From NCBI GenBank assembly GCA_016182365.1, contig JACOXO010000018.1, positions 1-63,820 on the forward strand: a stretch of 63,820 nucleotides of DNA. The letters run 5' to 3'. The position numbers were made by a program, and so were the translations under genes. This DNA is from Candidatus Gottesmanbacteria bacterium (GTDB taxonomy: Bacteria; Patescibacteriota; Microgenomatia; JACOXO01). The notes beneath the pieces were generated by a model. That model worked only from the letters and a program-made list of their open reading frames with translations. It was not told the DNA's origin and ran no database searches. Positions 3,938-60,442 of this stretch are shown one piece after another (the stretch's first letter is position 1; each line of letters opens with the position of its first letter).

Positions 3938-3998
3938 AGTAAATCCCGCGGAGCGGGATTGATGGTTTCTAAATTCGCTTCGCTCATTAAGTAACCAT

Positions 3999-4022
3999 CA
4001 AAAAACCTCCTTGCGGAGGTTT
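3999..4022 (-). terminator. Intrinsic terminator (attenuator) AAACCTCC-GCAA-GGAGGTTT followed by T6
   Basis: Perfect 8-bp stem plus a U-tract, read on the minus strand. Lies between the leader ORF and the DUF62 gene. Confidence 0.7.
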
Positions 4023-4046
4023 AAAAAGTATAAATAAACCTCCGAC

Positions 4047-4094
4047 TCAAACGGCAACCATTGCCATTGTGGAGGTTTTAAGAGTTTGTTTCAT
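4047..4094 (-). CDS. Candidate leader peptide MKQTLKTSTMAMVAV (15 aa)
   Basis: ATG 7 nt after the -10 box. The stop TGA lies 4 nt before segment 2 (GGAGGTTT). Met codons 10 and 12 lie just downstream of segment 1. Confidence 0.45.
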   Translation of the reverse strand: MKQTLKTSTMAMVAV

Positions 4095-4145
4095 TTAATT
4101 TATTATACCTGAATGTATAATCATTGCAAGTGATATAATTATTTT

Positions 4146-37942: not shown

Positions 37943-37972
37943 TTGACAAAATAAGCAGTTGTGGAATATAAT
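37943..37972 (+). promoter_or_regulatory. Promoter: TTGACA, 18-nt spacer, TATAAT
   Basis: Consensus hexamers at 37943-48 and 37967-72, in the gap after the 37416..37910 gene. Confidence 0.65.
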
Positions 37973-37991
37973 GATTGTTAGTTTAAAAACT

Positions 37992-38069
37992 ATGAATAGA
38001 CAAAACCTTCTTATTAACGTCATTAATGTCCTCCTTATTGGAGGAATTGACGTGTTGGGAGGAATGTAA
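37992..38069 (+). CDS. Candidate leader peptide MNRQNLLINVINVLLIGGIDVLGGM (25 aa; 12 Leu/Ile/Val)
   Basis: ATG 19 nt after the -10 box. Leu, Ile and Val make up 8 of 11 codons between codons 6 and 16. The ORF contains pairing segments TCCTCC, GGAGGA and GGGAGG. The stop lies 28 nt before the terminator. Confidence 0.5.
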   Translation: MNRQNLLINVINVLLIGGIDVLGGM

Positions 38070-38097
38070 ACTAGAAACCAAATTATTAAAAAATTAC

Positions 38098-38124
38098 AAA
38101 CCTCCTAAACAGGAGGTTTTTTTA
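38098..38124 (+). terminator. Intrinsic terminator (attenuator) AAACCTCCT-AAAC-AGGAGGTTT followed by a T-tract
   Basis: 9-bp perfect stem plus 7 T. Lies between the leader ORF and the structural genes. Confidence 0.75.
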
Positions 38125-38233
38125 TGCTGTAGTTTGCGAGCTACAAGCAAGCAAATACTACAGCATAATCCTTCGAAGCGAATATTCGTCTGCGGGGACG
38201 TAGCCCACGAGACGAACATGAGCGAAGGAGGAT
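38124..38233 (+). promoter_or_regulatory. Post-terminator hairpins in the ilvA leader
   Basis: ATGCTGTAGT-N23-ACTACAGCAT (38124-38166) with a loop containing GCGA. Nested TCCTTCG...CGAAGGA enclosing TCGTCT...AGACGA (38169-38231), containing GAAGCGAAT. Confidence 0.5.
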
Positions 38234-38253
38234 AGATTAAAAGGAGAAATCTT

Positions 38254-38517
38254 ATGGAAAATGGTAAAGGAGCAAGTGCTGCAGACATAATGGCTATGAG
38301 AATAAATGGAGGTGCTATGTTTAGTATACATAAAGATGCGCTAAATGGTACTAGTCCGCAAGAACACATACAAGCAATGTATGGGAAAATGGTCCTAATC
38401 GGAAAAGTGGAAACCTTAAAACAAGACCCGTATGTTGTTGTGTATGCTAGAGTAGCAGAACGTCCAGAACCACAACCAAACAAACCTAGTACTAACGGTA
38501 AACAATTACATTTTTAA
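38254..38517 (+). CDS. Hypothetical small protein (87 aa)
   Basis: ORF with a clear SD (AAAAGGAG) 7 nt upstream. No known motif. Confidence 0.5.
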   Translation: MENGKGASAADIMAMRINGGAMFSIHKDALNGTSPQEHIQAMYGKMVLIGKVETLKQDPYVVVYARVAERPEPQPNKPSTNGKQLHF

Positions 38518-38531
38518 AGGCGGTGATATTT

Positions 38532-38780
38532 ATGAAGGAATATCAAACAGCAATTCGAAGAACAGCTGAACAACAAAAGCGAGATTGGACTAAACCATTG
38601 GGAGATATAAGAGGAACTCAGGTAGCTCAAGATGTATTTCAAGCATACGGCGAAGTTGATCCTATCATAGGTACAGTCAAAGTATTCTCAAGAGCAATGA
38701 TTGAGACTCATTTTGAGACTGATCCGAGAGAGGCGGCTGCTAGAGCGTCAAAAAGAAAACCAGGCAAACCAATAGCATAA
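38532..38780 (+). CDS. Hypothetical small protein (82 aa)
   Basis: Preferred start is the ATG at 38532, preceded by AAAGGCGGTGA; the track uses a GTG at 38523. Stop overlaps the ilvA start region. Confidence 0.5.
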   Translation: MKEYQTAIRRTAEQQKRDWTKPLGDIRGTQVAQDVFQAYGEVDPIIGTVKVFSRAMIETHFETDPREAAARASKRKPGKPIA

Positions 38781-40032: not shown

Positions 40033-40403
40033 AATACATAGATACTAATAAAGCACCAAAAGTAGTAGGCCCCTATTCACAGGCAATAGTATCTGGGGAT
40101 TTTGTTTTCCTTTCTGGTCAAATTGGTGTTAATCCCAAAACAAATAATTTAGTTGAAGGAATTGAAAACCAGGCAAAACAAATTTTTTCCAACATAACAG
40201 AAATTTTAGAAGCTGCTGGGACCGATAAAACAAAGGTATTGAAAACAACTGTATTCATTAAAAACATTTCTGATTTTGCAAAGGTAAATGAGCTTTACGA
40301 GTCCTTCTTTGAAGGACATAAACCTGCAAGATCAACTGTTGAAGTATCCAGCTTACCCAAAGGGGCACTTATTGAAATCGATACTATTGCCTCTCTTAAA
40401 TAA
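40029..40403 (+). CDS. ridA: RidA (2-iminobutanoate/2-iminopropanoate deaminase)
   Basis: 124 aa. APKVVGPYSQAIVSGDFVFLSGQIG...KTTVFIKNISDFAKVNELY...PARSTVEVSSLPKGALIEID. ATGA overlap with ilvA. Confidence 0.9.
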   Translation: MKYIDTNKAPKVVGPYSQAIVSGDFVFLSGQIGVNPKTNNLVEGIENQAKQIFSNITEILEAAGTDKTKVLKTTVFIKNISDFAKVNELYESFFEGHKPARSTVEVSSLPKGALIEIDTIASLK

Positions 40404-40419
40404 CTAAGTTTGACAATTC

Positions 40420-40428
40420 TGATATAAT
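40420..40428 (+). promoter_or_regulatory. Extended -10 promoter element TGaTATAAT
   Basis: TG-n-TATAAT lies 8 nt upstream of the leader ATG. The nearby TTGACA (40410-15) is only 7 nt away, so it is not a functional -35. Confidence 0.45.
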
Positions 40429-40436
40429 ATATTTTT

Positions 40437-40523
40437 ATGAGTAAACAATCGTTCCAAACATTTTATTTTTGGTTTTACTTTACAGACCTCAAGTTTGGGG
40501 GGATTGTTTTGTTTAAGAAGTAA
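40437..40523 (+). CDS. Candidate leader peptide MSKQSFQTFYFWFYFTDLKFGGIVLFKK (28 aa, aromatic-rich)
   Basis: Codons 6-15 are F Q T F Y F W F Y F. The ORF is followed by an intrinsic terminator and then pheA. Confidence 0.55.
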   Translation: MSKQSFQTFYFWFYFTDLKFGGIVLFKK

Positions 40524-40547
40524 AAAGTAGAAAAATAAACAACTAAC

Positions 40548-40571
40548 AACCTCCCAAACGGGAGGTTTTTT
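40548..40571 (+). terminator. Intrinsic terminator (attenuator) AACCTCCC-AAAC-GGGAGGTT followed by T6
   Basis: 8-bp GC-rich stem plus a U-tract. The upstream TTTGGGGGG (40494-40502) can pair with its 5' arm CCTCCCAAA. Confidence 0.75.
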
Positions 40572-40573
40572 GA

Positions 40574-40707
40574 TGGGAAAGTTAACGCGATTGCGAGTTT
40601 TACTTTCCCACATCCCGCTCAGCGGGATTATGTGGTAAATAACGTAATTTTGTCCCGCGAAGCGGGACATAGAAAGACTAAACTCTAAGAATTCGTTAAG
40701 TCTTTCT
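40574..40707 (+). promoter_or_regulatory. Four post-terminator hairpins in the pheA leader
   Basis: TGGGAAAGT-N19-ACTTTCCCA (40574-40610, loop ACGCGATTGCGAG). ATCCCGC-TCA-GCGGGAT (40612-28). GTCCCGC-GAA-GCGGGAC (40652-68). AGAAAGACT-N19-AGTCTTTCT (40671-40707). Then SD AGGAGG. Confidence 0.55.
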
Positions 40708-40727
40708 TATGAAAGGAGGTGAGTTTT

Positions 40728-41582
40728 ATGACAGAAAAAGAAAAAGCCGGATTCCAAGGCATGCATGGAGCATTCAGTGATATTGCCGGAAGAAGATATT
40801 TTGATGGGAATGTATTAACTGTACCTTACGAAAGCTTCGAACGAATGATGGAAGCAGTTAGCAGAAGTAATTGCACATATGCAATTTTACCCATAGAAAA
40901 TACAGTTGCAGGAAGCATATATCAAAATTACGATCTTTTAGGAGAGTCTGGTCTAGCAGTAGTAGGTGAGGTATCTTTAAGAATTAAGCATAATCTTTTA
41001 GTAACTAATCAACCACCGCTTGATCAACAAGAAAGGATAGCGATCCTAAAAAAAGTTGGGTCTCACTTTAAAGCATTAGAACAATGTATACGATTCTTTA
41101 GGGATAATCCACATATTCAACAATCTGTCGAATTTGATACCGCAGGCTATGCGGAAGTCGTTGCGAAACAAGGCACAATTTATGACGGAGCAATTGCAAG
41201 TAAAACTGCGGCCAGACTTTATAGACTTCATGTATTAAGAGAAAACATTGAAGATAATCCAAATAATATAACCAGATTTTTAGTAGTTGGAAGAGAAAAA
41301 CAGTTATTTGGTCAAAAAGCTTCAATCAGATTTACCTTAAAACATGAACCGGGTTCTTTATCACGAGCAATCGCTGCTTTTGCCAGAGAGGGACTTAATT
41401 TAACAAAAATTGAATCTAGGCCTTTGATCGGTAGCCCGTTTGAATATTTATTCTATCTGGATTTTGAAACCGGAAATGATATGACAAGAACTGGAGTAGC
41501 CATTGAGAGTCTAGGGATGGTCGCAGATAGTTTAGACATTTTAGGTTACTATGACAAAGGGGGAATTAGTCAAGAAGATTAA
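40728..41582 (+). CDS. pheA: Prephenate dehydratase with a C-terminal ACT domain
   Basis: Preferred start is the ATG at 40728, 8 nt after AGGAGG (40714-40719); the track uses a GTG at 40719. FQGMHGAFSD...ILPIENTVAGSI...TRFLVVG... ACT domain with TKIESRPL. Confidence 0.9.
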   Translation: MTEKEKAGFQGMHGAFSDIAGRRYFDGNVLTVPYESFERMMEAVSRSNCTYAILPIENTVAGSIYQNYDLLGESGLAVVGEVSLRIKHNLLVTNQPPLDQQERIAILKKVGSHFKALEQCIRFFRDNPHIQQSVEFDTAGYAEVVAKQGTIYDGAIASKTAARLYRLHVLRENIEDNPNNITRFLVVGREKQLFGQKASIRFTLKHEPGSLSRAIAAFAREGLNLTKIESRPLIGSPFEYLFYLDFETGNDMTRTGVAIESLGMVADSLDILGYYDKGGISQED

Positions 41583-41609: not shown

Positions 41610-41876
41610 ATGTCAGTTGAAGGTGAACAACCATTATTACCCGAAGGTAATGCAACAAATAACAGTGTTTTAAATAATCATTTAGATGCTCATACAATAC
41701 CAAGTATTCCGGCAGTTGAATTTGAAGCTTTTCAGGATGTTGTGGATAATATTCCAATGCACCCATATCACAATGAACTAATACTATTTTCATTGTGGGA
41801 GGAGCGGCGCAAATCAAAAGGATGTAGGACGGATTTACAACTTCAGCCAATAAAACCTAAACAAACAAAAAAGTAA
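41610..41876 (+). CDS. Hypothetical small protein (88 aa)
   Basis: ORF with SD AAGGAG 7 nt upstream. No known motif. Confidence 0.45.
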   Translation: MSVEGEQPLLPEGNATNNSVLNNHLDAHTIPSIPAVEFEAFQDVVDNIPMHPYHNELILFSLWEERRKSKGCRTDLQLQPIKPKQTKK

Positions 41877-41900: not shown

Positions 41901-42965
41901 ATGAACCCGCAAATTTTATATGACATTTTTGAAAAAGCAGGAAAAGCAAGGGCATCGGGAAAAGATGTTATTAAACTTAATGTAGGTGAACCGGAACAAA
42001 GTCCTCCTAAAGAATTGTTTAAGGCAATTGAGAAGTCTTTAAAATCAGGTCGCACTACTTATGGTTCTGCTAGTGGTGATCCAAATTTAAGAGAACTTTT
42101 GGCAAAAGAGCATGGAATAAAACCAGAAAATGTTTTAATAGGTCCGGGATCTAAGTTTTTGATTTTTGCCACTCTTAAATTATTATCAAAGACGAAAGGA
42201 AAAATAATAATTCCTCTTCCGGCCTGGAGTGCATTTTCACTAATGTTTAAAGATTTGGGCATTAATAATATCCATTACCTAAAAACCACTGAAAAAAATA
42301 ACTGGCAAATAAATATTTCTGATTTAGAGAAAGTGGTTAGAGGATCAATTATTATTACCAATCCAAATAACCCCACAAGTACTTTATTTGATTATGCTTC
42401 TATCTTAAAAATATGTAAAAGAAATAGAATAAAAATAATTAAAGACTGTGCATATCAGGACTTAACTTTCTATGAAATAAAAAATAAGGTGGACTTAGAA
42501 AATACTATTGAGATTCACAGCTTTTCAAAAAAATTCTGTATGACTGGGTTTAGAATAGGGTATATGTTAGCAAACTCTACTATAGTTTCAGCCTTAACTA
42601 AGTTTATGCAGATAACAATAAGTAACGTCCCCCTATTTATTCAAGACGGTGCTTACCATCTTCTTAAAACAAATAAAAGTTTTCCAAGAAAAGTAGCATC
42701 TGTTTATAAAAAAAGGGTAGAGGTAATAGGCAAAATTTTAACAGATAATAATGTTACATTTGTTAAACCAAATGCCGGATTCTATATTTTTGCAAATATA
42801 GGAAGGCCCAGTGAAAAATTATGTTTAGAACTAATTGATAAAGGGGTAGCTTTTGTCCCAGGTACAGCTTTTGGTCCATACCCAAATTACATAAGGATAT
42901 CATTAACTGAAGACGAGAATAGGCTTAAAAAAGGAATTAATATTCTCATAAAGAATCTGAATTAA
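41901..42965 (+). CDS. Class I/II pyridoxal-phosphate aminotransferase (aspartate/aromatic type)
   Basis: 354 aa. NVGEPEQSPP; NPNNPTS; PLP-lysine block HSFSKKFCMTGFRIGY; FVPGTAFG..IRISL. TGaTATAAT ends 7 nt before the ATG. Confidence 0.85.
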   Translation: MNPQILYDIFEKAGKARASGKDVIKLNVGEPEQSPPKELFKAIEKSLKSGRTTYGSASGDPNLRELLAKEHGIKPENVLIGPGSKFLIFATLKLLSKTKGKIIIPLPAWSAFSLMFKDLGINNIHYLKTTEKNNWQINISDLEKVVRGSIIITNPNNPTSTLFDYASILKICKRNRIKIIKDCAYQDLTFYEIKNKVDLENTIEIHSFSKKFCMTGFRIGYMLANSTIVSALTKFMQITISNVPLFIQDGAYHLLKTNKSFPRKVASVYKKRVEVIGKILTDNNVTFVKPNAGFYIFANIGRPSEKLCLELIDKGVAFVPGTAFGPYPNYIRISLTEDENRLKKGINILIKNLN

Positions 42966-46105: not shown

Positions 46106-46166
46106 GGGTTTCCCGCGAAGCGGGATCCCGCAATCATTAGAATTTGTAATAAATATTTGTGCGGGA
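46106..46166 (+). repeat. GC-rich hairpin module at the tRNA-Val 3' flank, homologous to 1114-1187
   Basis: GGTTTCCCGC..., TCCCGC-GAA-GCGGGA (46111-25), then CCCGCA-N27(AT-rich)-TGCGGG (46127-46165). Shares GGTTTCCCGC, CCCGCAA and TGCGGGAC with the tRNA-Arg flank. Confidence 0.6.
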
Positions 46167-50033: not shown

Positions 50034-50942
50034 ATGTTAATAGAAAAACCAAACTTTGAAATAGGTGGAGATATTTTTCCTTATGATACCTTTCTTGCTT
50101 TACTGCGATCTGCAAATATTACAGATCCTGAAAGCTTATCCGATAACAGTAATCAGAATTTTATGAGTATCCTACAAGCTTCTTACGAAAGACAACAAGC
50201 TTTATTGATAGTTTCTGCAACTAACATTGATCATAGAAAATGGCACCATGACAGAACATATTTTGCTGGCGATCCTAATAATGAATATATTCTTTTAAAA
50301 ATTGATAAACCCATAGAAAAAGGTTCATACCCAACCCATATCAGTTATGTTTCAAATACGCCGGGGCAAACCACTGAAGATAGTATTGATCTTGTAATTT
50401 CTAGCGGTACAAATGTTATAAGTATTTTACAGAATTCACCGAGTTATATAACTCCTGAAATGGAAACTGATCCTAGAATGCTTAGGCGGTTCAAAAAATT
50501 TTTACTAGGAAAGTGGTCTTTTGAGAGAAGTCTAAAAAGAACTGTTAGAACAGATGAGTTTGAAGTAGAAACTTCATATGATCTTTATCCACATACGTTT
50601 AGAATCAACCAACATACACGACCAAGAAATCAAGAATCAGTTGTTCCAGCCTTGAGTGTATTAGATATGGGAGGATCACTTAGTATGAGTCTCTGGCAGC
50701 CCGACGGTAAAGGTTTATGTGGAGTCGAATATAATATTGAAGCTGATGGAAGTTATCATATGAAATTTGACCCGAGATTATATAAATTAAATCCAAACGA
50801 TCCAAATCTTGCACAGTTTATGGTAAGGTCACTTTCTAATGATAAGTATTTTGAGGTACCAATGCTAATAGACCCTCAAGATGTTTATGCTAAACTTGCT
50901 AAAGGTATACCTGCAATATATTTTGATATAAAAGATCGTTGA
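50034..50942 (+). CDS. Hypothetical protein (302 aa)
   Basis: Long ORF with no recognisable family. Confidence 0.5.
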   Translation: MLIEKPNFEIGGDIFPYDTFLALLRSANITDPESLSDNSNQNFMSILQASYERQQALLIVSATNIDHRKWHHDRTYFAGDPNNEYILLKIDKPIEKGSYPTHISYVSNTPGQTTEDSIDLVISSGTNVISILQNSPSYITPEMETDPRMLRRFKKFLLGKWSFERSLKRTVRTDEFEVETSYDLYPHTFRINQHTRPRNQESVVPALSVLDMGGSLSMSLWQPDGKGLCGVEYNIEADGSYHMKFDPRLYKLNPNDPNLAQFMVRSLSNDKYFEVPMLIDPQDVYAKLAKGIPAIYFDIKDR

Positions 50943-50961
50943 CAAAAAAGGTGGTGATTTT

Positions 50962-51150
50962 ATGAAAAAAGAAGCACCTATTTGGGTTGATATGAGCGCG
51001 GTAGACATTGGTGCAGAACCTGAAATTCACGATGGAATGTATGTAACAAGTTTTGCATTAGGAGGAGTATGTGGATCAATTAAAGCACCAGAGAAAATAG
51101 AACCACAAAGTCAACCGTTAATGCCTTTATTTGTAGCAAAAAGCAAATAA
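50962..51150 (+). CDS. Hypothetical small protein (62 aa)
   Basis: ORF with SD-like AAAAGGTGGTGA 5 nt upstream. Followed by an 8-bp hairpin (51148-51180) ahead of thrS. Confidence 0.4.
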   Translation: MKKEAPIWVDMSAVDIGAEPEIHDGMYVTSFALGGVCGSIKAPEKIEPQSQPLMPLFVAKSK

Positions 51151-51199
51151 TACGCTTGCGTTGGAATAAGAGGCGTATTATCATTAACCTAAGTATTTT

Positions 51200-52918
51200 A
51201 TGGATAACTTAAGACATTCTTGTGCGCATTTGCTTGCTGCAGCTGTTATGCAGTTGTGGCCAAATACAAAAAGGACGATAGGGCCAGCAATTGAAAATGG
51301 GTTTTATTTTGACTTTGATTTCGGCAAAGTTAAGATAAATGATGAAGACCTTCCCAAAATAGAAAAGAAAATGCGCCAGATTCTTCCTACATGGAAAGGG
51401 TTTGAAAGGCATGAGTTATCGACTCAAGATGCTAAAAAAGAATACCCGGGTAATGAATTTAAAGAAGAGTTAATCGATGAATTCACAAAAGATGGGCAAA
51501 AGTTGAGCTTTTATAAATCCGGGGACTACTGGGATCTTTGTAAAGGAGGCCATGTTGAAAATCCTGATAAGGTTTTAGGTAATTTTAAATTGCTTTCAAT
51601 TGCCGGTGCCTATTGGAGAGGAAGTGAGAAGAATAAAATGCTGACAAGAATATATGGAACAGTATTTCCAACAAAAGAAGAACTGGATAAATATCTCTGG
51701 CAGCTTGAAGAAGCTAAAAAGAGGGATCATAAAAAATTAGGCCCAAAACTTGAGCTTTTTATGTTTGACCCTTATAGTCCGGGTATGCCTTATTGGCTGC
51801 CTCATGGAGTAATCGTCTTAAATGAACTTGTCAACTTTTGGAGAGTAGAACATAACAAAAGAGGATATCAGGAGATAAAAACGCCTCTTATTAACAAAAG
51901 GGAACTATATGAAACTTCCGGACACTGGGACCACTACCGGGAAAATATGTTTTTATCTGAGACTTCGGAAAAAGAAATTTATGGTTTAAAACCGATGAAT
52001 TGTCCAAATGCTATGGTTGTGTTTGCCAAAAAGTCTAGAAGCTATCGGGAACTACCTTTGAGGTTATCTGATACCGATACACTGCACAGATATGAAAGAT
52101 CCGGAACATTAAATGGACTTTTTAGAGTAAGGGAATTTTCTCAGGATGATGCCCATATCTTCGTAAGTGAGAATCAGATAAAAGATGAGTATATGCGGAT
52201 ATTTGAAATTACTGAGCTTTTTTATTCTGTCTTTAACATGGAGTATTCATACAGGCTAGGGACAAGACCGGAAAAATTTATGGGTGATAAAAAAGTCTGG
52301 GATCGTGCTGAAAAGGAACTAAAGGCAATCCTTGATAAAAGTGGTAAAAAATACACAGTTTTGGCTGGTGACGGAGCATTTTATGGTCCTAAAATTGATA
52401 TTTTGATGAAAGATTTTTTAGGAAGAGAGTGGCAAATGGGTACGATTCAGCTGGATTTCCAAATTCCTAAGCGCTTTGGCCTTGCCTATCAAGCTGCCGA
52501 CGGAACATTAAAAACACCTGTTGTTATTCATAGGGTAATTTATGGATCACTAGAAAGATTTATAGGGATATTAATAGAACACAGTGCTGGCAACTTTCCA
52601 GACTGGCTCTCCCCAGTACAAATCACTCTTATACCTATAGCCGAAAGGCATAATGATTATGTTAAGAAAATACAAGATGAGCTTTTGAAAAATGGGGTTA
52701 GGGTGAATGTTGATGACAGGGCAGAGCGTATGCAGGCTAGGATTAGAGATGCAACGTTGCAAAAAGTCCCATATATAGGTATAATTGGGGACAGAGAAGC
52801 CAGAAACGAGGCTTTTAGTTTTTCCCTTAGAAATATTAAAGGGGAAGACAAAGGAATAATAACAATCGATGAGTTCATTTCAAAGATTCTCAAGAAGGCC
52901 GTATCAGCCAAGGGGTAA
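51200..52918 (+). CDS. thrS: Threonyl-tRNA synthetase, short form without the N-terminal TGS domain
   Basis: 572 aa. Starts in the editing/SAD domain (HSCAHLLAAAV). Class II core with RVREFSQDDAHIF and GAFYGPKID. C-terminal anticodon-binding domain. Confidence 0.9.
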   Translation: MDNLRHSCAHLLAAAVMQLWPNTKRTIGPAIENGFYFDFDFGKVKINDEDLPKIEKKMRQILPTWKGFERHELSTQDAKKEYPGNEFKEELIDEFTKDGQKLSFYKSGDYWDLCKGGHVENPDKVLGNFKLLSIAGAYWRGSEKNKMLTRIYGTVFPTKEELDKYLWQLEEAKKRDHKKLGPKLELFMFDPYSPGMPYWLPHGVIVLNELVNFWRVEHNKRGYQEIKTPLINKRELYETSGHWDHYRENMFLSETSEKEIYGLKPMNCPNAMVVFAKKSRSYRELPLRLSDTDTLHRYERSGTLNGLFRVREFSQDDAHIFVSENQIKDEYMRIFEITELFYSVFNMEYSYRLGTRPEKFMGDKKVWDRAEKELKAILDKSGKKYTVLAGDGAFYGPKIDILMKDFLGREWQMGTIQLDFQIPKRFGLAYQAADGTLKTPVVIHRVIYGSLERFIGILIEHSAGNFPDWLSPVQITLIPIAERHNDYVKKIQDELLKNGVRVNVDDRAERMQARIRDATLQKVPYIGIIGDREARNEAFSFSLRNIKGEDKGIITIDEFISKILKKAVSAKG

Positions 52919-55015: not shown

Positions 55016-57022
55016 ATGATTATTTCTCTAGATTGGTTATCAGATTTTATTAAATTAAATAGATCTCCTAAGGAGATTGCTGATAAGATAACTCTATCTT
55101 TATCAGAAGTTGAGAAAATAGAGAAAAAAAGGAGTGATACGATTTTGGAAATTGAAAATAAGGCCCTAACACACAGGCCTGACTGTTTTTCCCAATTAGG
55201 CCTGGCGAGAGAAATAGCTGCATATTTTAACACTCCACTAAACGATCCATTGCACAAGCTTACAAATACTAAAATTAAAAAACCTAATAAAAACCTGAAT
55301 TTATCAGTTTCGCTGAAGAACCCTGAAGATATTCCTAGATATTGCACTATTGTTCTTTCTACTATAAAAGTAAAAACTTCACCAGAATTCATACAGAAAC
55401 GGCTTATTTCCTGCGGCATACGGCCAATAAACAATGTTGTAGATATAACTAATTATGTCATGCTAGAACTGGGACAACCATTGCACGCGTATGATTATGA
55501 TAAAGTGGATGGCCATAAAATTGAGGTTAGAAAAGCTAGCAAAGGTGAGACTATCGTTACTCTTGACTCGGTTGCAAGAAATCTTGATAAAACTATGGTA
55601 GTTATCGCCGATGATAAAAAAGTGTTGCTATTGGGTGGTGTGATGGGTGGTAAAGACAGCGAAGTAAATGGCGATACTAAAACAATAATATTGGAGAGTG
55701 CAACTTTTGATGGAAAAACAACAAGAATAACTTCCAAAAAAGTTGGTCTTAGGACAGATGGCTCAACAAGATATGAAAAAAACATTGATCCTAATTTGGC
55801 TTATGCAGGATTGGTCAGGGCTGCTGAACTTTTAGAGAAATTTGCTGGAGCAAAAGTAGCATCAAAGTTATTTGATATTCATTACGGATTGCCAAATCCC
55901 AAGGTAATTGAAGTAGAAACAGACAGGTTAAACACAATTCTAGGTCTTAGTTTAAAACCGGAAGATATAAAGAATTTATTGGAAAGACTCAAATTAAAAA
56001 CAGAGATTAAAGATAAACTATTAACAATAACTATTCCCACATACAGAAGAGATTTATCAATGGAGGCTGATATCGCCGAAGAAGTGGCAAGAATATATGG
56101 ATATGATGAAATCCCAACAACACTACCTAAAGGAGATATTATTCCACCATTTAAAAATCCTGTCATCGAAGGGCAATATCAAATTAAAAATATTTTAATG
56201 GGACTGGGACTTTACGAAGTTCATCTTCCTAGTTTAATAGGCAATGAAACAATTTCACTCCTTGGTGAGGATAAGGAAAAGCACATAAAACTTCTTAACC
56301 CTACAAGTCCTGAAAAAACATATTTTAAAAGAAGTTTAATTGAATCTCTTGTACTTGCTGCAGAATTGAATTCTAAATACTTTAACAATTTTGGAATTTT
56401 TGAAGTTGGAAGAGTTTACGAAAAAACTCAAAAAGGAAAACTTCCTAATGAGAGGATAAAAGTAGGCGCTATATTTTTATATCCAAAAACTGATGATATT
56501 GGAAATTCTTTTTACAAAGTAAAAGGCATTATTGAAGAACTACTTAATATATTAAGTATTCCTCTACCAGAATTTAATCCATTAGATAAGCATCAGGTTT
56601 TCCAAAAAGGAATAACTGCAAAAGTTGGAGATTACGGAATTGTAGGAAAAATTAATCCTCAAATTTCAGATTGGATTTCCAAAGAATCTAACGTTTTTGG
56701 CTTTGAATTGGATTTTAAAATGCTCATAAGTAAAAGGGTAGGGAAGTACTATAAACAAATTTCGAATAATCCTGCAATTATTGAAGATTTTACTTTTGAA
56801 TTTGCAAAAATACCTTTGATAGGATATTTGCTTTCAGAAATAAAATCATCTGATCAACTTATTAATCAAATAGATATTGTGGGAACTTATAATAATTCGA
56901 TAACAGTAAGAGTCTATTTCCAGGACCCCAATAAATCCCTGTCATCAAAAGAAATAGATCCATTTAGAAAAAAGTTAATTGAATTAATTGGAGAAAAATT
57001 TAAAGGAAAAATTAAAACTTAA
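55016..57022 (+). CDS. pheT: Phenylalanyl-tRNA synthetase beta subunit, short form
   Basis: 668 aa. MIISLDWLSDFIKL start; B3/4 domain (NNVVDITNYVMLELGQPLHAYD); B5 (RRDLSMEADIAEEVARIYGYD); FDX-ACB end. About 120 aa shorter than typical (no OB tRNA-binding insert). Confidence 0.85.
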   Translation: MIISLDWLSDFIKLNRSPKEIADKITLSLSEVEKIEKKRSDTILEIENKALTHRPDCFSQLGLAREIAAYFNTPLNDPLHKLTNTKIKKPNKNLNLSVSLKNPEDIPRYCTIVLSTIKVKTSPEFIQKRLISCGIRPINNVVDITNYVMLELGQPLHAYDYDKVDGHKIEVRKASKGETIVTLDSVARNLDKTMVVIADDKKVLLLGGVMGGKDSEVNGDTKTIILESATFDGKTTRITSKKVGLRTDGSTRYEKNIDPNLAYAGLVRAAELLEKFAGAKVASKLFDIHYGLPNPKVIEVETDRLNTILGLSLKPEDIKNLLERLKLKTEIKDKLLTITIPTYRRDLSMEADIAEEVARIYGYDEIPTTLPKGDIIPPFKNPVIEGQYQIKNILMGLGLYEVHLPSLIGNETISLLGEDKEKHIKLLNPTSPEKTYFKRSLIESLVLAAELNSKYFNNFGIFEVGRVYEKTQKGKLPNERIKVGAIFLYPKTDDIGNSFYKVKGIIEELLNILSIPLPEFNPLDKHQVFQKGITAKVGDYGIVGKINPQISDWISKESNVFGFELDFKMLISKRVGKYYKQISNNPAIIEDFTFEFAKIPLIGYLLSEIKSSDQLINQIDIVGTYNNSITVRVYFQDPNKSLSSKEIDPFRKKLIELIGEKFKGKIKT

Positions 57023-57198
57023 TTTATGTTATAATAAATTTTATGAGCAAACAAAAACAAACAAGCTTAAAAAAAAGAATTTTGAAATTTATTACTGAAG
57101 TTATAGATTCGTTAAGCTACCTTTTTTCAGGCTGGTAGCTTATGGCGTAAGAGTGGAGGTGTTTGACAATTCTTGGCTACACCTGGAATTTATAAAGG

Positions 57199-57846
57199 CT
57201 ATCTGTTTCTTAAAACGCTCATAGAAGCCTCTCCGAAAGTAAAGACGTTTATACGGTTTAAAATTCTTCCGGGAAGATTGCCTGAACCATTTATTCCAAA
57301 ATTGTCAACTGAATTAGTCCAGTTTAAATTATCCGGAATATCAAATAATAATTGAGCTAGGCGCTGAAGATTATTTGGGTGAATCTCCTTTGGATGCGTT
57401 GGTTTAAGTACAACAAAGTTAGCTAAGTTTTCTTTTCCATCAATTAATTCCATACTAATCCCGGTTAACATTCTAAAAGAGACAGGATTGCCTTGTGGAT
57501 CGTAAAGACGATTTAAGTCTGGATAATCTACTATCTTTAAATCATCTATGGCAAAATTAAACGAACTTAGGTTTCCCCTTCTAATGGCTAAACCGGAAGC
57601 TGAATTCAGTCTTTCAGTTAATTGACGATCCCCCCAAAAAGAGCTATTAATCAATGTAGGATTTAGAGTACTCTGGATAATTTCTGTGGTTAACTTGGCA
57701 TCTTCCCGGCTTAGCGAAAAATCTTCAAACGCCAATTGTAATTCTGCTAAACCTATTTCATTAGCTAGAGTATAATATGCAGCCGATGCAGCAATTAAAC
57801 CAGTAGCTACTAAGAAACCTCTTCTTTGTATATTTCGCTCTGTCAT
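57199..57846 (-). CDS. Hypothetical exported protein with a twin-arginine-like signal
   Basis: 215 aa. N-terminal MTERNIQRRGFLVATGLIAASAAYYTLA (RRxFL plus an h-region). Confidence 0.5.
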   Translation of the reverse strand: MTERNIQRRGFLVATGLIAASAAYYTLANEIGLAELQLAFEDFSLSREDAKLTTEIIQSTLNPTLINSSFWGDRQLTERLNSASGLAIRRGNLSSFNFAIDDLKIVDYPDLNRLYDPQGNPVSFRMLTGISMELIDGKENLANFVVLKPTHPKEIHPNNLQRLAQLLFDIPDNLNWTNSVDNFGINGSGNLPGRILNRINVFTFGEASMSVLRNR

Positions 57847-57859
57847 GCGCTATATTATA

Positions 57860-60442
57860 TCAGAGTGTTGGGGTGGGGGTGGTTTGCCAGTCGGATTTTA
57901 CTCCAATTTTAACTTCTCTAGATCCATTATTCCCTTGATTGTCAAAAGCTGTAATTTTAACAGTATGCGGGCCGGTAGTCATATTAAATACCTCGTTTAT
58001 CGAATCTCCGTTTACGGTTTTTTTAAGTCCTCCATCAATTTCAATTTCCAGTTTTGATATACCGTTTAGGGAAACTCCCTTTGCCTGAATTGTTATGTCA
58101 TTGGTATCGTATCTTTTCTCTTGATCCGGCTCATGTAGCTCAACAACAACACTATTGTTTGACCCATCGCTATTATCTGTTGGTGGATGAAATTTAGAAT
58201 CGGACTGGGTAGACAGCCAGGTGTTAATTCCTTCTTGGTATCTGTTTCTACCATCTGTTGATAGGGGATCGTTTTCAGCAAAAACAATAAATTCTTTTTC
58301 TTCATAATTCCCACTGGCTACTTCGACTTCGTTTGCCAGTTTTCCAGTTGATTTTGAAATTTTAATTTTTTTATAAATTGCGCTTTGAGTCGTAGGCTCT
58401 GTGCCTTTCTTATAAAATTCTTTTCTGATAGGGTAGCCTTCTTTGGGGAGACCGCCTCCATACGCGTCTATATCAAGTTCAACAATATTATCCGGTTTTT
58501 TAAACGCTTCTTTTGGATATTTTTTTAGAGCCTCCTGCATTATCCTGTTCCATATTGGAGCGGCCCCAGTAACACCCGAGGCAAGTGTAGGGCTCATTTG
58601 CGTGTTATCATTATTGCCAACCCAAGCACCAATAACAATTGAGGGAACATAGCCGACTGTCCAGTTATCTTTTTTATCATCTGTAGTACCTGTTTTTACT
58701 GCAACTCCGTCAATATTAAGCCAGGAATTGGGGCCAAACACATCAATTCTGGCATTATTATCGGAAAGTATGTTGGAAATTAAGAATGATACATCCTCAC
58801 CTAATACTGTTTTTCCTTTTGTAGGTTTATCTTGATAAAGTATTTTGCCGCTGCTATCGGTAACTTTTAATATTGATACAGGTTCATGAAATTGTCCATT
58901 TGTTGCGAATACGCCGAATGCATTAACAAGCTCCAGAAGTGTTACTTCTCCTCCCCCTAGAGTTACAGATAAACCAAAACGGTTGACGTTGTCTTGAGTT
59001 GGAGCAAGGCTTGTTAAACCCATATTAAAGGCAGTTGATAGCAAATCTTCAACACCAACATAAGATAATAACTTTACAGCTGACATGTTGATAGAATTAC
59101 CAAGAGCTTGGCGAAGCTGTATAGGTCCTCTAAATTTTCCATCATAGTTTTTAGGTTCATACTCTTTCTCCCCAGCGCCTCCGGGAAATTTAGTAGGCAC
59201 ATCCATAATAATTGATGAGGGAGTAAACCCTTTTTTAAATGCTGCTGCGTATGTTATTGGTTTTAAAGTACTTCCAGGCTGTCTCAAAGCTGTGGTTACA
59301 TTATAATTTCCATCCTCATCAGTTGCAAAGTAATCTTTAGATCCTATCATTACCAGTATTTCACCGGTGTTTGGATCCATAGCAAGCGCGGCTCCATTTC
59401 CAACTTGTAAACCTTTAGCTTTTTCAACTTCTTCAAAAACTGCCTGTTGCGATTTTTCCTGTAATTCATAATCAAGGGTTGTAAAAACCCTCAAACCATC
59501 TTCTTCGATGCTTTTTTCTCCGAACCTGTCTAATAACTGCTCCCGAACATACATTACAAAATGGGGCGCCAATATGTCTTTTCTTTGCGGTTGGAAAGAA
59601 AGACCGGGAAGCTCTTTTTTTGCCGCTTCTTCCTCTTCCTTGGTTATATACCCATCTTCCCTCATACGTCTTAAAACATCCCCGCCCCTTGCAATATATG
59701 CTTTAGAATCTCCGGTATACGGTGAATAGAAGCTGGGACGCTGGGGGATTCCGGCAAGTACAGCAGATTCTGATAATGTTAAATCTTTTGCCCTCTTACC
59801 AAAATAGTCTTGTGAAGCAACTTCAATTCCGGCTGCAGTTCCTCCGTAAGGTACTTCATTTAAATACATTTGCAGAATTTCGTCTTTTGAGTACCGCCTT
59901 TCAATTTCAACAGAAAGAATAAACTCCTTTATTTTCCTAGGAACGCTTCTTTCGTTGGATAATAGCGCATTTTTAACAAGTTGCTGGGTTAGAGTAGAAC
60001 CTCCTTCAGTCCTTCCTTTTATAAGTGGGCTTATAATCAGTCCGCGGAGAAGTCCGGGAATGGAAAAACCTTTGTGTTTGTAAAAATCCTTATCTTCAAT
60101 TGCAACTGTTGCGTTTTTAAGATGATCAGGAACTTCACTCAAGCCAACAGGAACTCTATTCTCATCTTTATAGATATCATAAAGAACTTTGCCGTTTCTA
60201 TCGTAGATAATTGTAGATAGACCGCTTGTTCTCCTTATCTGGTCAGGTTTCGGAAGATCTCTGCCATACCAGACAAAAAGGAAAGCTGTAGCGATAAATC
60301 CGAGAATTAATAAAATTAATATCGCTAAAGTTGCGTACCTAAGTATGGCTGCTTTTGAAAATGTAAATTTCCTCATGTTAAATCTTCTCCCATTGGAACG
60401 GTAATCAAAATTATTTGGCGTACGGGATATCATTATCTCCAA
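57860..60442 (-). CDS. Class A penicillin-binding protein (PBP1A: GT51 transglycosylase plus transpeptidase) with a C-terminal Ig-like domain
   Basis: 860 aa. GT51 motifs EDKDFYKHKGF, GGSTLTQQLVKN, RKIKE. Transpeptidase STLKP (SxxK), SIN (SxN), KTGT. An alternative start at 60376 (MRKFTF) precedes the TM segment. Confidence 0.9.
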   Translation of the reverse strand: MEIMISRTPNNFDYRSNGRRFNMRKFTFSKAAILRYATLAILILLILGFIATAFLFVWYGRDLPKPDQIRRTSGLSTIIYDRNGKVLYDIYKDENRVPVGLSEVPDHLKNATVAIEDKDFYKHKGFSIPGLLRGLIISPLIKGRTEGGSTLTQQLVKNALLSNERSVPRKIKEFILSVEIERRYSKDEILQMYLNEVPYGGTAAGIEVASQDYFGKRAKDLTLSESAVLAGIPQRPSFYSPYTGDSKAYIARGGDVLRRMREDGYITKEEEEAAKKELPGLSFQPQRKDILAPHFVMYVREQLLDRFGEKSIEEDGLRVFTTLDYELQEKSQQAVFEEVEKAKGLQVGNGAALAMDPNTGEILVMIGSKDYFATDEDGNYNVTTALRQPGSTLKPITYAAAFKKGFTPSSIIMDVPTKFPGGAGEKEYEPKNYDGKFRGPIQLRQALGNSINMSAVKLLSYVGVEDLLSTAFNMGLTSLAPTQDNVNRFGLSVTLGGGEVTLLELVNAFGVFATNGQFHEPVSILKVTDSSGKILYQDKPTKGKTVLGEDVSFLISNILSDNNARIDVFGPNSWLNIDGVAVKTGTTDDKKDNWTVGYVPSIVIGAWVGNNDNTQMSPTLASGVTGAAPIWNRIMQEALKKYPKEAFKKPDNIVELDIDAYGGGLPKEGYPIRKEFYKKGTEPTTQSAIYKKIKISKSTGKLANEVEVASGNYEEKEFIVFAENDPLSTDGRNRYQEGINTWLSTQSDSKFHPPTDNSDGSNNSVVVELHEPDQEKRYDTNDITIQAKGVSLNGISKLEIEIDGGLKKTVNGDSINEVFNMTTGPHTVKITAFDNQGNNGSREVKIGVKSDWQTTPTPTL

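Follow-up and report, generated by a model that had tools for sequence, protein, structure and literature searches.

The subject of this analysis is the region ahead of pheA, the prephenate dehydratase gene, on contig JACOXO010000018.1 of a Candidatus Gottesmanbacteria bacterium, of which the whole stretch of 63,820 nt was analysed (hereafter the window). Here, a short leader open reading frame (ORF) crowded with aromatic codons is followed by an intrinsic terminator and a set of alternative RNA helices. Very probably this arrangement represents a classical ribosome-mediated transcription attenuator, which controls pheA and, probably, the downstream aminotransferase gene. Within the established class of leader-peptide attenuators, it appears to be a new member, one that extends across the candidate phyla radiation (CPR). 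The coordinates of all features are collected in Table 1.

The extended -10 promoter with the ATG shortly behind it, as well as the 28-codon ORF with its block of aromatic codons, had been read in a preliminary description of this DNA. The former agrees exactly with the sequence and the latter is correct base for base. A TTGACA motif at 40410-40415 lies only 7 nt from the -10 hexamer, which is too close for a -35 element, so that the promoter consists of the extended -10 motif alone. Since the ATG follows the -10 hexamer after 8 nt and is not preceded by a Shine-Dalgarno sequence, translation of the leader is probably leaderless, and the mRNA would probably be leaderless or nearly so. The ORF is enriched in codons for the end products of the pathway, as are the leaders of the attenuator class, and its run of Phe codons just 5' of pheA corresponds to the ORF that characterizes the Rfam family Phe_leader (RF01859). 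Its stop codon is located 205 nt before the pheA start. Within the window no second ORF of this kind exists on either strand (10-45 codons, at least 7 of 8 consecutive residues aromatic), and the chance expectation obtained with first-order Markov shuffles is 0.05 per strand.

The terminator follows the leader ORF and precedes pheA, the position typical for attenuators. On the DNA level it reads AACCTCCC-AAAC-GGGAGGTT at 40548-40567 with a T-run to 40571. The stem comprises 8 bp including 5 G-C pairs and is followed by T6; the hairpin alone has an energy of -13.5 kcal/mol. This hairpin with its T6 was already part of the preliminary description and was listed independently by a terminator scan. 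Furthermore, a pairing of TTTGGGGGG (40494-40502) with CCTCCCAAA (40550-40558) in the terminator 5' arm, including one G-U pair, had been proposed as antiterminator. The pairing itself is found, but its extent of 9 bp did not hold: the antiterminator is a far longer helix of 40484-40516 with 40536-40568 (about -34 kcal/mol), which takes up both terminator arms. The full free leader RNA folds into this 2:3 antiterminator (-38 kcal/mol, z = -3.2), and the 2:3 duplex displays -20.2 kcal/mol (z = -7.4 against shuffles). Region 2, at codons 17-27 of the leader, has also been delimited as 40492-40516. Folding thus supports the competition between the 2:3 and 3:4 helices that had been suggested before, whereas a further helix had been missed. 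When the leader RNA is cut before region 3, it folds as 1:2, pairing 40443-40459 with 40493-40509 at about -21 kcal/mol (duplex -21.1 kcal/mol, z = -4.0 against shuffles). With this 1:2 helix, all four regions known from the trp, phe and his attenuators are present in the folding model.

The influence of a ribosome on these helices was described with a mask model, which considers equilibrium, not kinetics, and in which the unpaired footprint extends from about 15 nt before to about 14 nt behind the first nucleotide of the A site. The terminator probability is 0.00 for A sites on codons 1-13, including F9 Y10 F11 W12 F13, and 0.93-0.97 for A sites on codons 14-26, at which the ribosome lies over region 2. 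In this model the antiterminator shares one strand with the terminator, and its other strand can be reached by a ribosome finishing the leader but becomes free upon stalling at the regulatory codons, as in other members of the attenuator class.

The following mechanism is proposed. Transcription would start about 7 nt past TGATATAAT, which would place the leader AUG at or beside the 5' end for leaderless initiation. With good charging of the Phe-, Tyr- and Trp-tRNAs, the ribosome would pass FYFWFYF into codons 14-28 and cover region 2 (40484-40516) while the polymerase synthesizes regions 3 and 4; the 3:4 terminator would form, and transcription would stop at about 40571. Poor charging of one of these aromatic tRNAs would stall the ribosome on codons 9-13, where it would mask region 1 and leave region 2 free to form the long antiterminator with region 3, and the polymerase would read into pheA. 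Without translation, the 1:2 helix would form first and then the terminator. An example would be read-through transcripts from the ilvA-ridA operon upstream, in which the AUG is internal and lacks a Shine-Dalgarno sequence; in this case the same hairpin would terminate that operon as well.

Table 1. Elements of the pheA leader region, sister elements in the window, and leaders at the related loci (positions refer to the window unless a locus is named).
Feature	Sequence	Position	Strand	Remarks
Extended -10 promoter	TGATATAAT	40420-40428	+	read from the sequence; without properly spaced -35
Leader-peptide ORF	MSKQSFQTFYFWFYFTDLKFGGIVLFKK	40437-40523	+	28 codons; ATG 8 nt past the -10 hexamer; no Shine-Dalgarno sequence
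Regulatory codons	F..FYFWFYF	40452-40481	+	codons 6-15; 8 of 10 aromatic (5 Phe, 2 Tyr, 1 Trp)
Region 1	AAACAAUCGUUCCAAAC	40443-40459	+	pairs with region 2; inverted repeat I8
Region 2 (antiterminator 5' strand)	core GUUUGGGGGGAUUGUUU	40484-40516	+	core at 40493-40509
Region 3		40536-40559	+	partner is region 2 (antiterminator) or region 4 (terminator)
Intrinsic terminator	AACCUCCC-AAAC-GGGAGGUU plus U-tract	40548-40571	+	terminator scan, folding
Second upstream ORF (uORF2)	MGKLTRLRVLLSHIPLSGIMW	40573-40638	+	21 codons; starts right past the U-tract, 7 nt 3' of GGAGG in the terminator 3' arm
Structured spacer		40574-40711	+	three hairpins; two copies of palindrome TCCCGC-N3-GCGGGA
Shine-Dalgarno sequence of pheA	AAAGGAGG	40713-40720	+	unpaired in the minimum-free-energy fold
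pheA (prephenate dehydratase)		40728-41582	+	presumed regulated gene; PF00800, PF01842 (ACT)
Class I/II aminotransferase		41901-42965	+	43% identical to the aminotransferase in the aromatic-pathway operon of L085
ILV leader element	ORF MNRQNLLINVINVLLIGGIDVLGGM	37943-38125	+	promoter TTGACA-18-TATAAT 37943-37972; ORF 37992-38069; terminator 38098-38125
Thr/Met leader element	leader MKQTLKTSTMAMVAV	4000-4129	-	TTGCAA (4129-4124), TATAAT (4107-4102); ATG 4094, 7 nt past the -10
Palindrome copies		3943-3959, 40612-40628, 40652-40668, 46110-46126
ATG past the U-tract		window 40573, 38124, 3998 (-); L084 3072; L085 3187; L175 2368; L178 2475; L179 2516
L084 leader	MSKLLSSQFFYFFYFKAQTGREDSALVI			GGGAGGAU segment; terminator (A)AUCCUCCCAAACGGGAGG-U7
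L085 leader	MEKFISSQSFYFYFWFYGKTVGRIVEKIKN			GGGAGGAU segment; terminator AACCCUCCCAAGCGGAGGGUU-U4
L175 leader	MQATQKAFFAFYFTS; second MKNKMKIRQIFSFGNFFKPN
L176 leader	MKNIGAGNGFFYTYSCLGGGGCDC; second MGPNKINCNFFYVYPAYRGGLF
L178 leader	MNTSNQKFYFFYFYPPTGRLVAGVTD
L179 leader	MDTLITKKFYFYFYPNYCGENF			Roizmanbacteria protein
L181 leader	MKNTTAQNFYFYNDPPCGGSCNC; second MNIKLVLKFYFYFYPA

The preliminary description had named the occurrence of an aromatic upstream ORF (uORF) plus terminator ahead of pheA in related genomes as a check. Aromatic leader ORFs with a terminator are present in all seven independent DAHP-synthase/pheA loci that were fetched (L084, L085, L175, L176, L178, L179 and L181). 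Five of them were reached via homologues of the L085 DAHP synthase, named Patescibacteria and Roizmanbacteria; source names are given for three of the seven loci, L175 and L181 being Patescibacteria and L179 Roizmanbacteria. PheA is without close relatives; the best identity is 47% for L084, followed by L085 with 44%, and both display the operon DAHP synthase-pheA-chorismate mutase-tyrA-aroB-aroQ-aroA. Three other contigs that encode the identical PheA come from the organism of the window itself (DNA identity of 99.9% or more); as their leader is identical too, they add nothing to the comparison.

The regulatory codons and the alternative pairings are kept in these relatives, as expected for an attenuator. 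Their aromatic runs read FYFYFWFY, FFYFFYF and similar, and beyond the run the length (15-30 amino acids) and the sequence of the peptides vary freely. The promoters of the relatives are of the type TTGACA-16/18-TAnAAT, in some cases with a TGn extension, in the same placement; in L084 and L085, where the leader fills the gap ahead of the first operon gene, they read TTGACA-17-TGaTAAAAA, with the ATG 8-9 nt later. The ATG follows the -10 after 8-11 nt in six of the seven and after 14 nt in L179. In L175 (2246-2476), L176 (2239-2470) and L181 (2227-2462), tandem attenuators precede the DAHP synthase gene, each leader with its own terminator.

For the co-variation analysis, duplex folding against shuffles was applied to 12 leaders, namely the phe leader of the window, a second leader of the window ahead of ilvA (the Ile/Leu/Val or ILV leader), the first leaders of the seven relatives and three second leaders. 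Duplex energies and a leave-one-out model were used in place of column-wise pair counts, because the MAFFT alignment misplaced region 2 in some rows. All 12 leaders contain, just past the regulatory run, a segment complementary to the terminator 5' arm (z = -2.7 to -7.4). It starts 9-16 nt past the run in 10 of the 12, the outliers being the second leader of L176 (1 nt) and the ILV leader (24 nt), and it lies inside the ORF or at most about 15 nt past its stop. The core of region 2 is a copy of the terminator 3' arm core: a GGGAGG-like core accompanies CCUCCC/GGGAGG terminators, and a GCGGGG-like core accompanies CCCCGC/GCGGGG terminators. Region 2 thus changes together with the type of terminator, which answers the call for covariation made in the preliminary description, and such behavior is characteristic of an antiterminator. 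Strong 1:2 helices are limited to the window, L084 and L178; here, the sequences of regions 1 and 2 are wholly different and the pairing is kept. Short leaders seem to depend on the ribosome at the stop codon alone.

A covariance model was built on the first leaders of the seven relatives with the window left out. Its top match in the window is 40435-40573 over the full length of the model (77.4 bits, E = 1.4e-12), followed by the ILV leader with 41.7 bits; nothing further was found in the window below E = 0.05. When the same model was run on 1.06 Mb of non-CPR pheA loci, it retrieved five sites, all of them aromatic leaders, with 30-41 bits. In a sensitive Rfam search of the 501 nt from 40300 to 40800 (E <= 10), Phe_leader is by far the best match with 43.0 bits (E = 6.2e-6, model positions 1-125), and the only other hits are noise, e.g., from miRNA and RNAI models. 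RF01859 also matches L085 (40.3 bits) and L084 (39.5 bits). At gathering threshold, Rfam reports four tRNAs and nothing else in the whole window; the identity of the element as a riboswitch or T-box was dropped, as no curated family except the tRNAs reaches that threshold.

The window harbors two further elements of the same design. The ILV leader element ends in the terminator AAACCUCCUAAACAGGAGGUUU-U4 (on the DNA AAACCTCCTAAACAGGAGGTTT+T) and is followed by two small ORFs, ilvA and ridA. The two small ORFs (38254-38517 and 38523-38780, + strand) encode 87 and 85 amino acids, each with a good Shine-Dalgarno sequence and without a Pfam match. In the mask model, stalling on codons 6-18 (LLINVINVLLIGG) lowers the terminator probability to at most 0.14, compared to 0.6-0.93 elsewhere, and the switch coincides exactly with the ILV codons. 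The last 58 nt of the ILV leader are 74% identical to the matching part of the phe leader (repeat D1). Its ATG lies 19 nt past the -10, and it is probably not leaderless. The second sister, the Thr/Met leader element, was found through its terminator and not by a codon scan. Its regions 1-4 read AAACCUCC/GGAGGUUU/AAACCUCC/GGAGGUUU with the terminator at 4022-4003, and its ATG is predicted to be leaderless. The gene behind it encodes a S-adenosylmethionine (SAM) hydroxide adenosyltransferase, i.e., a SAM hydrolase (3937-3182, - strand; PF01887/PF20257), and the element could act as an attenuator that senses Met or Thr and controls the release of methionine from SAM by this enzyme. A scan of the window for leaders of other amino acids (His, Trp, Cys, Arg and others) revealed nothing convincing beyond the ILV leader, and the gap 5' of the threonyl-tRNA synthetase (ThrRS) gene (50942-51200) contains an ordinary small ORF and no leader. 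With three elements of one design in 64 kb, it can be argued that this genome uses leader-peptide attenuation routinely.

An extra feature of the phe element is the region between the terminator and pheA. uORF2 occupies the site at which the tandem relatives carry their second aromatic leader. An ATG just past the U-tract, at Shine-Dalgarno distance (7-9 nt) from the GGAGG of the 3' arm, is present in all six GGAGG-type terminators. Such an ATG is found behind 8 of the 21 terminator-like hairpins in the examined loci, and all eight of these are attenuator terminators. It opens mini-ORFs of 2-5 codons in the ILV element, L084, L085 and L178 and the second aromatic leader in L175. In L179, whose terminator is of the GCGGGG type, it is probably the start of the DAHP synthase gene itself; in the stretch 2492-2520 of this locus, the start given in the database (ATG 2501) falls into the terminator loop, and the ATG past the U-tract is the more likely one.

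The spacers behind three attenuators are exceptionally structured compared to shuffles, with z = -6.07 for the window (40572-40735), -8.0 behind the ILV element (38124-38260) and -6.1 for L084 (3072-3220). These spacers of 130-150 nt have a common layout, in which hairpin 1 starts at the AUG past the U-tract and one or two long hairpins follow, and their sequences are unrelated between the loci. One spacer hairpin of the window, GTCCCGCGAAGCGGGAC, resembles the terminators of the tandem relatives but has no U-tract. The spacer could be a decayed second attenuator, or it could be a module for stability, processing or translation. The palindrome (A/G/T)TCCCGC-N3-GCGGGA(T/C) occurs in four intergenic copies just 5' of genes, with a chance expectation of 0.04 in this genome of 35% GC. 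The spacer hairpins were also considered as a dispersed repeat; this was rejected, since only the short palindrome recurs in the window and none of the other fetched CPR loci contains it.

Several observations speak against attenuation of pheA. The RF01859 score of 43 bits stays below the gathering threshold of 55 bits, and for this reason the element is filed as a member of the attenuator class and not as that Rfam family. At equilibrium, the mask model favors the antiterminator in the full-length free RNA and also with the ribosome at the stop codon; termination must therefore rely on kinetics, with 1:2 forming first, or on a ribosome placed on region 2. For L084 and L085, the same model yields a weak equilibrium switch. 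Furthermore, no leader is present at the closest PheA loci that lack an upstream gap, namely L171, L174 and L086/L168 (bacterium HR35 type). In L171 (3374-5864), ilvA, ridA and pheA are contiguous and overlapping in the order of the window; judging from this, the phe leader may either have been inserted into an ancestral ilvA-ridA-pheA cluster or have been lost in L171. The Tyr and common-pathway genes are lost within the 64-kb window, which leaves the retention of the Tyr and Trp codons unexplained; these codons may be inherited rather than needed. Finally, the transcription start, a terminated RNA of about 135 nt and the translation of the uORF are predictions from the sequence, and we infer the coupling of ribosome and polymerase as well as the response to amino acids. 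CPR bacteria are not known to couple transcription to translation.

Different explanations have to be weighed against this background. The hairpin might be a mere terminator of ilvA-ridA, the aromatic ORF a product of chance in T-rich DNA, which readily gives Phe and Tyr codons, and pheA might be transcribed from a separate promoter downstream. The contiguous cluster of L171 without a leader would fit, as does the terminator listing, which contains no other terminator between the ridA stop (40403) and the leader hairpin; from this it follows that the attenuator hairpin probably also ends the ilvA-ridA transcript. These roles are compatible, however, since one hairpin can end an operon and serve an attenuator. 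As the sole function it is very improbable, because the ORF is the only one of its kind in the window and has its own extended -10, ORF and terminator recur at seven other loci behind unrelated upstream genes, region 2 co-varies with the terminator, the 77-bit match spans the whole leader and not the hairpin alone, and no promoter-like site is listed on the + strand between 40572 and 40727. A further reading takes the small ORF not as a sensor but as the gene of a functional micro-protein of hydrophobic or aromatic character, e.g., a membrane peptide or toxin; this is barely credible. The peptide is indeed hydrophobic, and leader peptides acting in trans are known, e.g., peTrpL (PMC7298713). 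Nevertheless, only the aromatic run is conserved while the rest of the peptide is not, and the ORF is always located directly 5' of aromatic-pathway genes, with the terminator next and the antiterminator in or at the ORF end.

An unlikely alternative, which takes the region past the terminator into account, is translational or post-transcriptional control as the main principle instead of termination. Here, the GGGAGG arm would act as the Shine-Dalgarno sequence of the ORF past the U-tract. The spacer with uORF2 and three hairpins would set the output of pheA, either as an additional sensor or as a module for processing or stability, and the aromatic uORF would do no more than modulate access to it. 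The regular distance between GGAGG and ATG, its restriction to attenuator terminators, and the strong structure of three otherwise unrelated spacers with hairpin 1 at the AUG are in line with it, and so is the nature of the ORF found there, which is the second aromatic leader in L175 and the DAHP synthase gene in L179. On the contrary, L085, L178 and L179 keep leader and terminator with almost no spacer, no Rfam family matches the window spacer, whose sequence is not conserved between loci, the Shine-Dalgarno sequence of pheA is unpaired in the predicted fold, and the canonical hairpin with its U-tract speaks for termination. The same observations allow a combination of both principles, which is put forward only tentatively and is rather doubtful: a composite relay in these CPR genomes, made up of a leaderless leader, a terminator whose GGAGG arm serves as Shine-Dalgarno sequence of the ORF past the U-tract (a second leader, a mini-ORF of 2-21 codons or the structural gene) and, in some genomes, a hyper-structured spacer of 130-150 nt. 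If so, antitermination would activate transcription and, in addition, unmask translation and/or a second checkpoint, and the module would have been adapted to non-biosynthetic salvage genes, e.g., by the Thr/Met leader before the methionine-releasing SAM hydrolase.

Regarding the genes under the proposed control by the attenuator, the assignment of the downstream genes as prephenate dehydratase and aminotransferase in the preliminary description agrees with their domains. The aminotransferase gene is probably part of the pheA operon. A tblastn search of the 64 kb with the pathway proteins of L084 and L085 found pheA and the aminotransferase as the only aromatic-pathway genes. Between both genes an ORF of 88 amino acids is present (41610-41876, + strand), exactly at the place of the 88-residue CM_2 chorismate mutase in L084 and L085; a chorismate mutase identity was rejected for it, as it displays no Pfam match and no BLASTP similarity to the mutases of L084 and L085. 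The CPR-like host, which had been supposed from the letters alone, is in agreement with the ThrRS, 66-70% identical to proteins named Patescibacteria group, Microgenomates, Woesebacteria, Amesbacteria and Daviesbacteria, and with the presence of a DUF5660 protein. The window and L085 also have a neighborhood in common, in which PheT is followed by a divergently oriented class A penicillin-binding protein (window 55016-60442; L085 1-2984). Next to this pair lies the aromatic-pathway leader with its operon in L085 and a GH42-like gene in the window.

Nearly all knowledge of CPR bacteria or Patescibacteria comes from metagenomes; they are mostly regarded as auxotrophic symbionts, and very little is known about their gene regulation. 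A conserved attenuator implies that some Microgenomates-type lineages synthesize aromatic amino acids themselves, at least in part, and sense tRNA charging through the translating ribosome. Such ribosome-based sensing suggests that these lineages probably couple transcription and translation like model bacteria. The occurrence of three elements within 64 kb (Phe/Tyr, Ile/Leu/Val and possibly Met/Thr) further suggests that attenuation is a main strategy where protein regulators are scarce. For annotators, the elements offer a simple signature, since their small ORFs are missed by gene callers. The mechanism as such is textbook knowledge; noteworthy are the host group, the density of the elements and the unexplained module behind the terminator.

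Leaders of a related kind are present in other phyla as well. A rule-based scan (small ORF with at least 6 of 8 residues aromatic plus terminator) of 168 pheA loci, covering 1.13 Mb on both strands, gave 11 cases outside the window, 10 of which lie on the pheA strand and adjoin pheA or aromatic-pathway genes. Leaders with FY repeats (SFYFYFYFT, SGFYFYFYFSG) and a terminator directly before pheA were found in metagenome-assembled genomes (MAGs) that carry the labels Anaerolineae, Acidobacteria/Blastocatellia and Heliobacteriaceae. Leaders ahead of pheA in which Phe and Tyr alternate are therefore widespread. In comparison to the window, the FY-repeat leaders of other phyla have different terminator sequences and are GC-richer, and those that the CPR model does match reach 30-41 bits, far below the 77 bits of the window; they may be homologous or convergent. 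Near-identical terminators (AGGCCCCTC...GAGGGGCCTTTTGATT) occur in MAGs labelled Heliobacteriaceae and Acidobacteria (L010 2746-2950, L011 319-476, L013 2755-2946), a likeness which suggests either mis-binning or a joint horizontal transfer of pheA and leader. When genomes and metagenomes were scanned with PheA, the matches came mostly from other phyla, and among those listed no metagenome locus exceeded 43% identity.

As of 2010, leader-peptide systems were reported to be known only from Proteobacteria, Actinobacteria and a then new case in Firmicutes (PMC2965389). Full-text literature searches, whose coverage is incomplete and which are weak evidence, revealed no paper that joins leader-peptide attenuation with the CPR or Patescibacteria. 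Reports of pheL are nearly confined to Gammaproteobacteria, and the few possible cases outside this class concern Bacteroides and Desulfobacterium (PMC3082878); the elements described here widen the known phyletic range of pheL-type leaders.

Among the known systems, pheL-pheA of E. coli and other enterobacteria (RF01859) shares with the window the short ORF rich in Phe codons directly 5' of pheA as well as the 1:2, 2:3 and 3:4 helices, and the terminator of the RF01859 model, AAaGCCuCCcaAccgGGaGGCuUUUUUU, is nearly the same as that of the window, AACCUCCCAAACGGGAGGUUUUUU. In contrast to the enterobacterial PheL, the leader has 28 codons instead of 15, its Phe and Tyr codons alternate and include one Trp codon instead of forming pure Phe runs, a Shine-Dalgarno sequence is absent, the AUG lies at the predicted 5' end, and the host belongs to the Patescibacteria.

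The mixed codons resemble the multivalent attenuators of E. coli ilvGMEDA and thr, in which a single leader contains codons for more than one end product of a branched pathway. Mixed Phe/Tyr/Trp codons amount to multivalent sensing, and this fits the operons of the relatives, in which pheA, tyrA and the common pathway are combined, whereas in the window only pheA and the aminotransferase lie downstream. Likewise, the leader ahead of ilvA in the window (LLINVINVLLI) mirrors the logic of the ilv leader.

Leaderless leader peptides before amino-acid biosynthesis genes have been described in Deinococcus deserti (PMC4007540) and in Actinobacteria, as for Corynebacterium ilvB (PMC11857589). There, too, the AUG lies at the transcription start or a few nt from it and a Shine-Dalgarno sequence is missing; the differences are the phylum and that the start in the window is predicted from promoter geometry. 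Of the 10 promoter-proximal leaders, sister elements included, 8 have their ATG 7-11 nt past the -10, the exceptions being L179 with 14 nt and the ILV leader with 19 nt. The short distance in these 8, together with the missing Shine-Dalgarno sequence, implies leaderless initiation. Thus, the element appears to depart from the E. coli paradigm in two respects, the leaderless AUG and the mixed codons, both of which are known from elsewhere.

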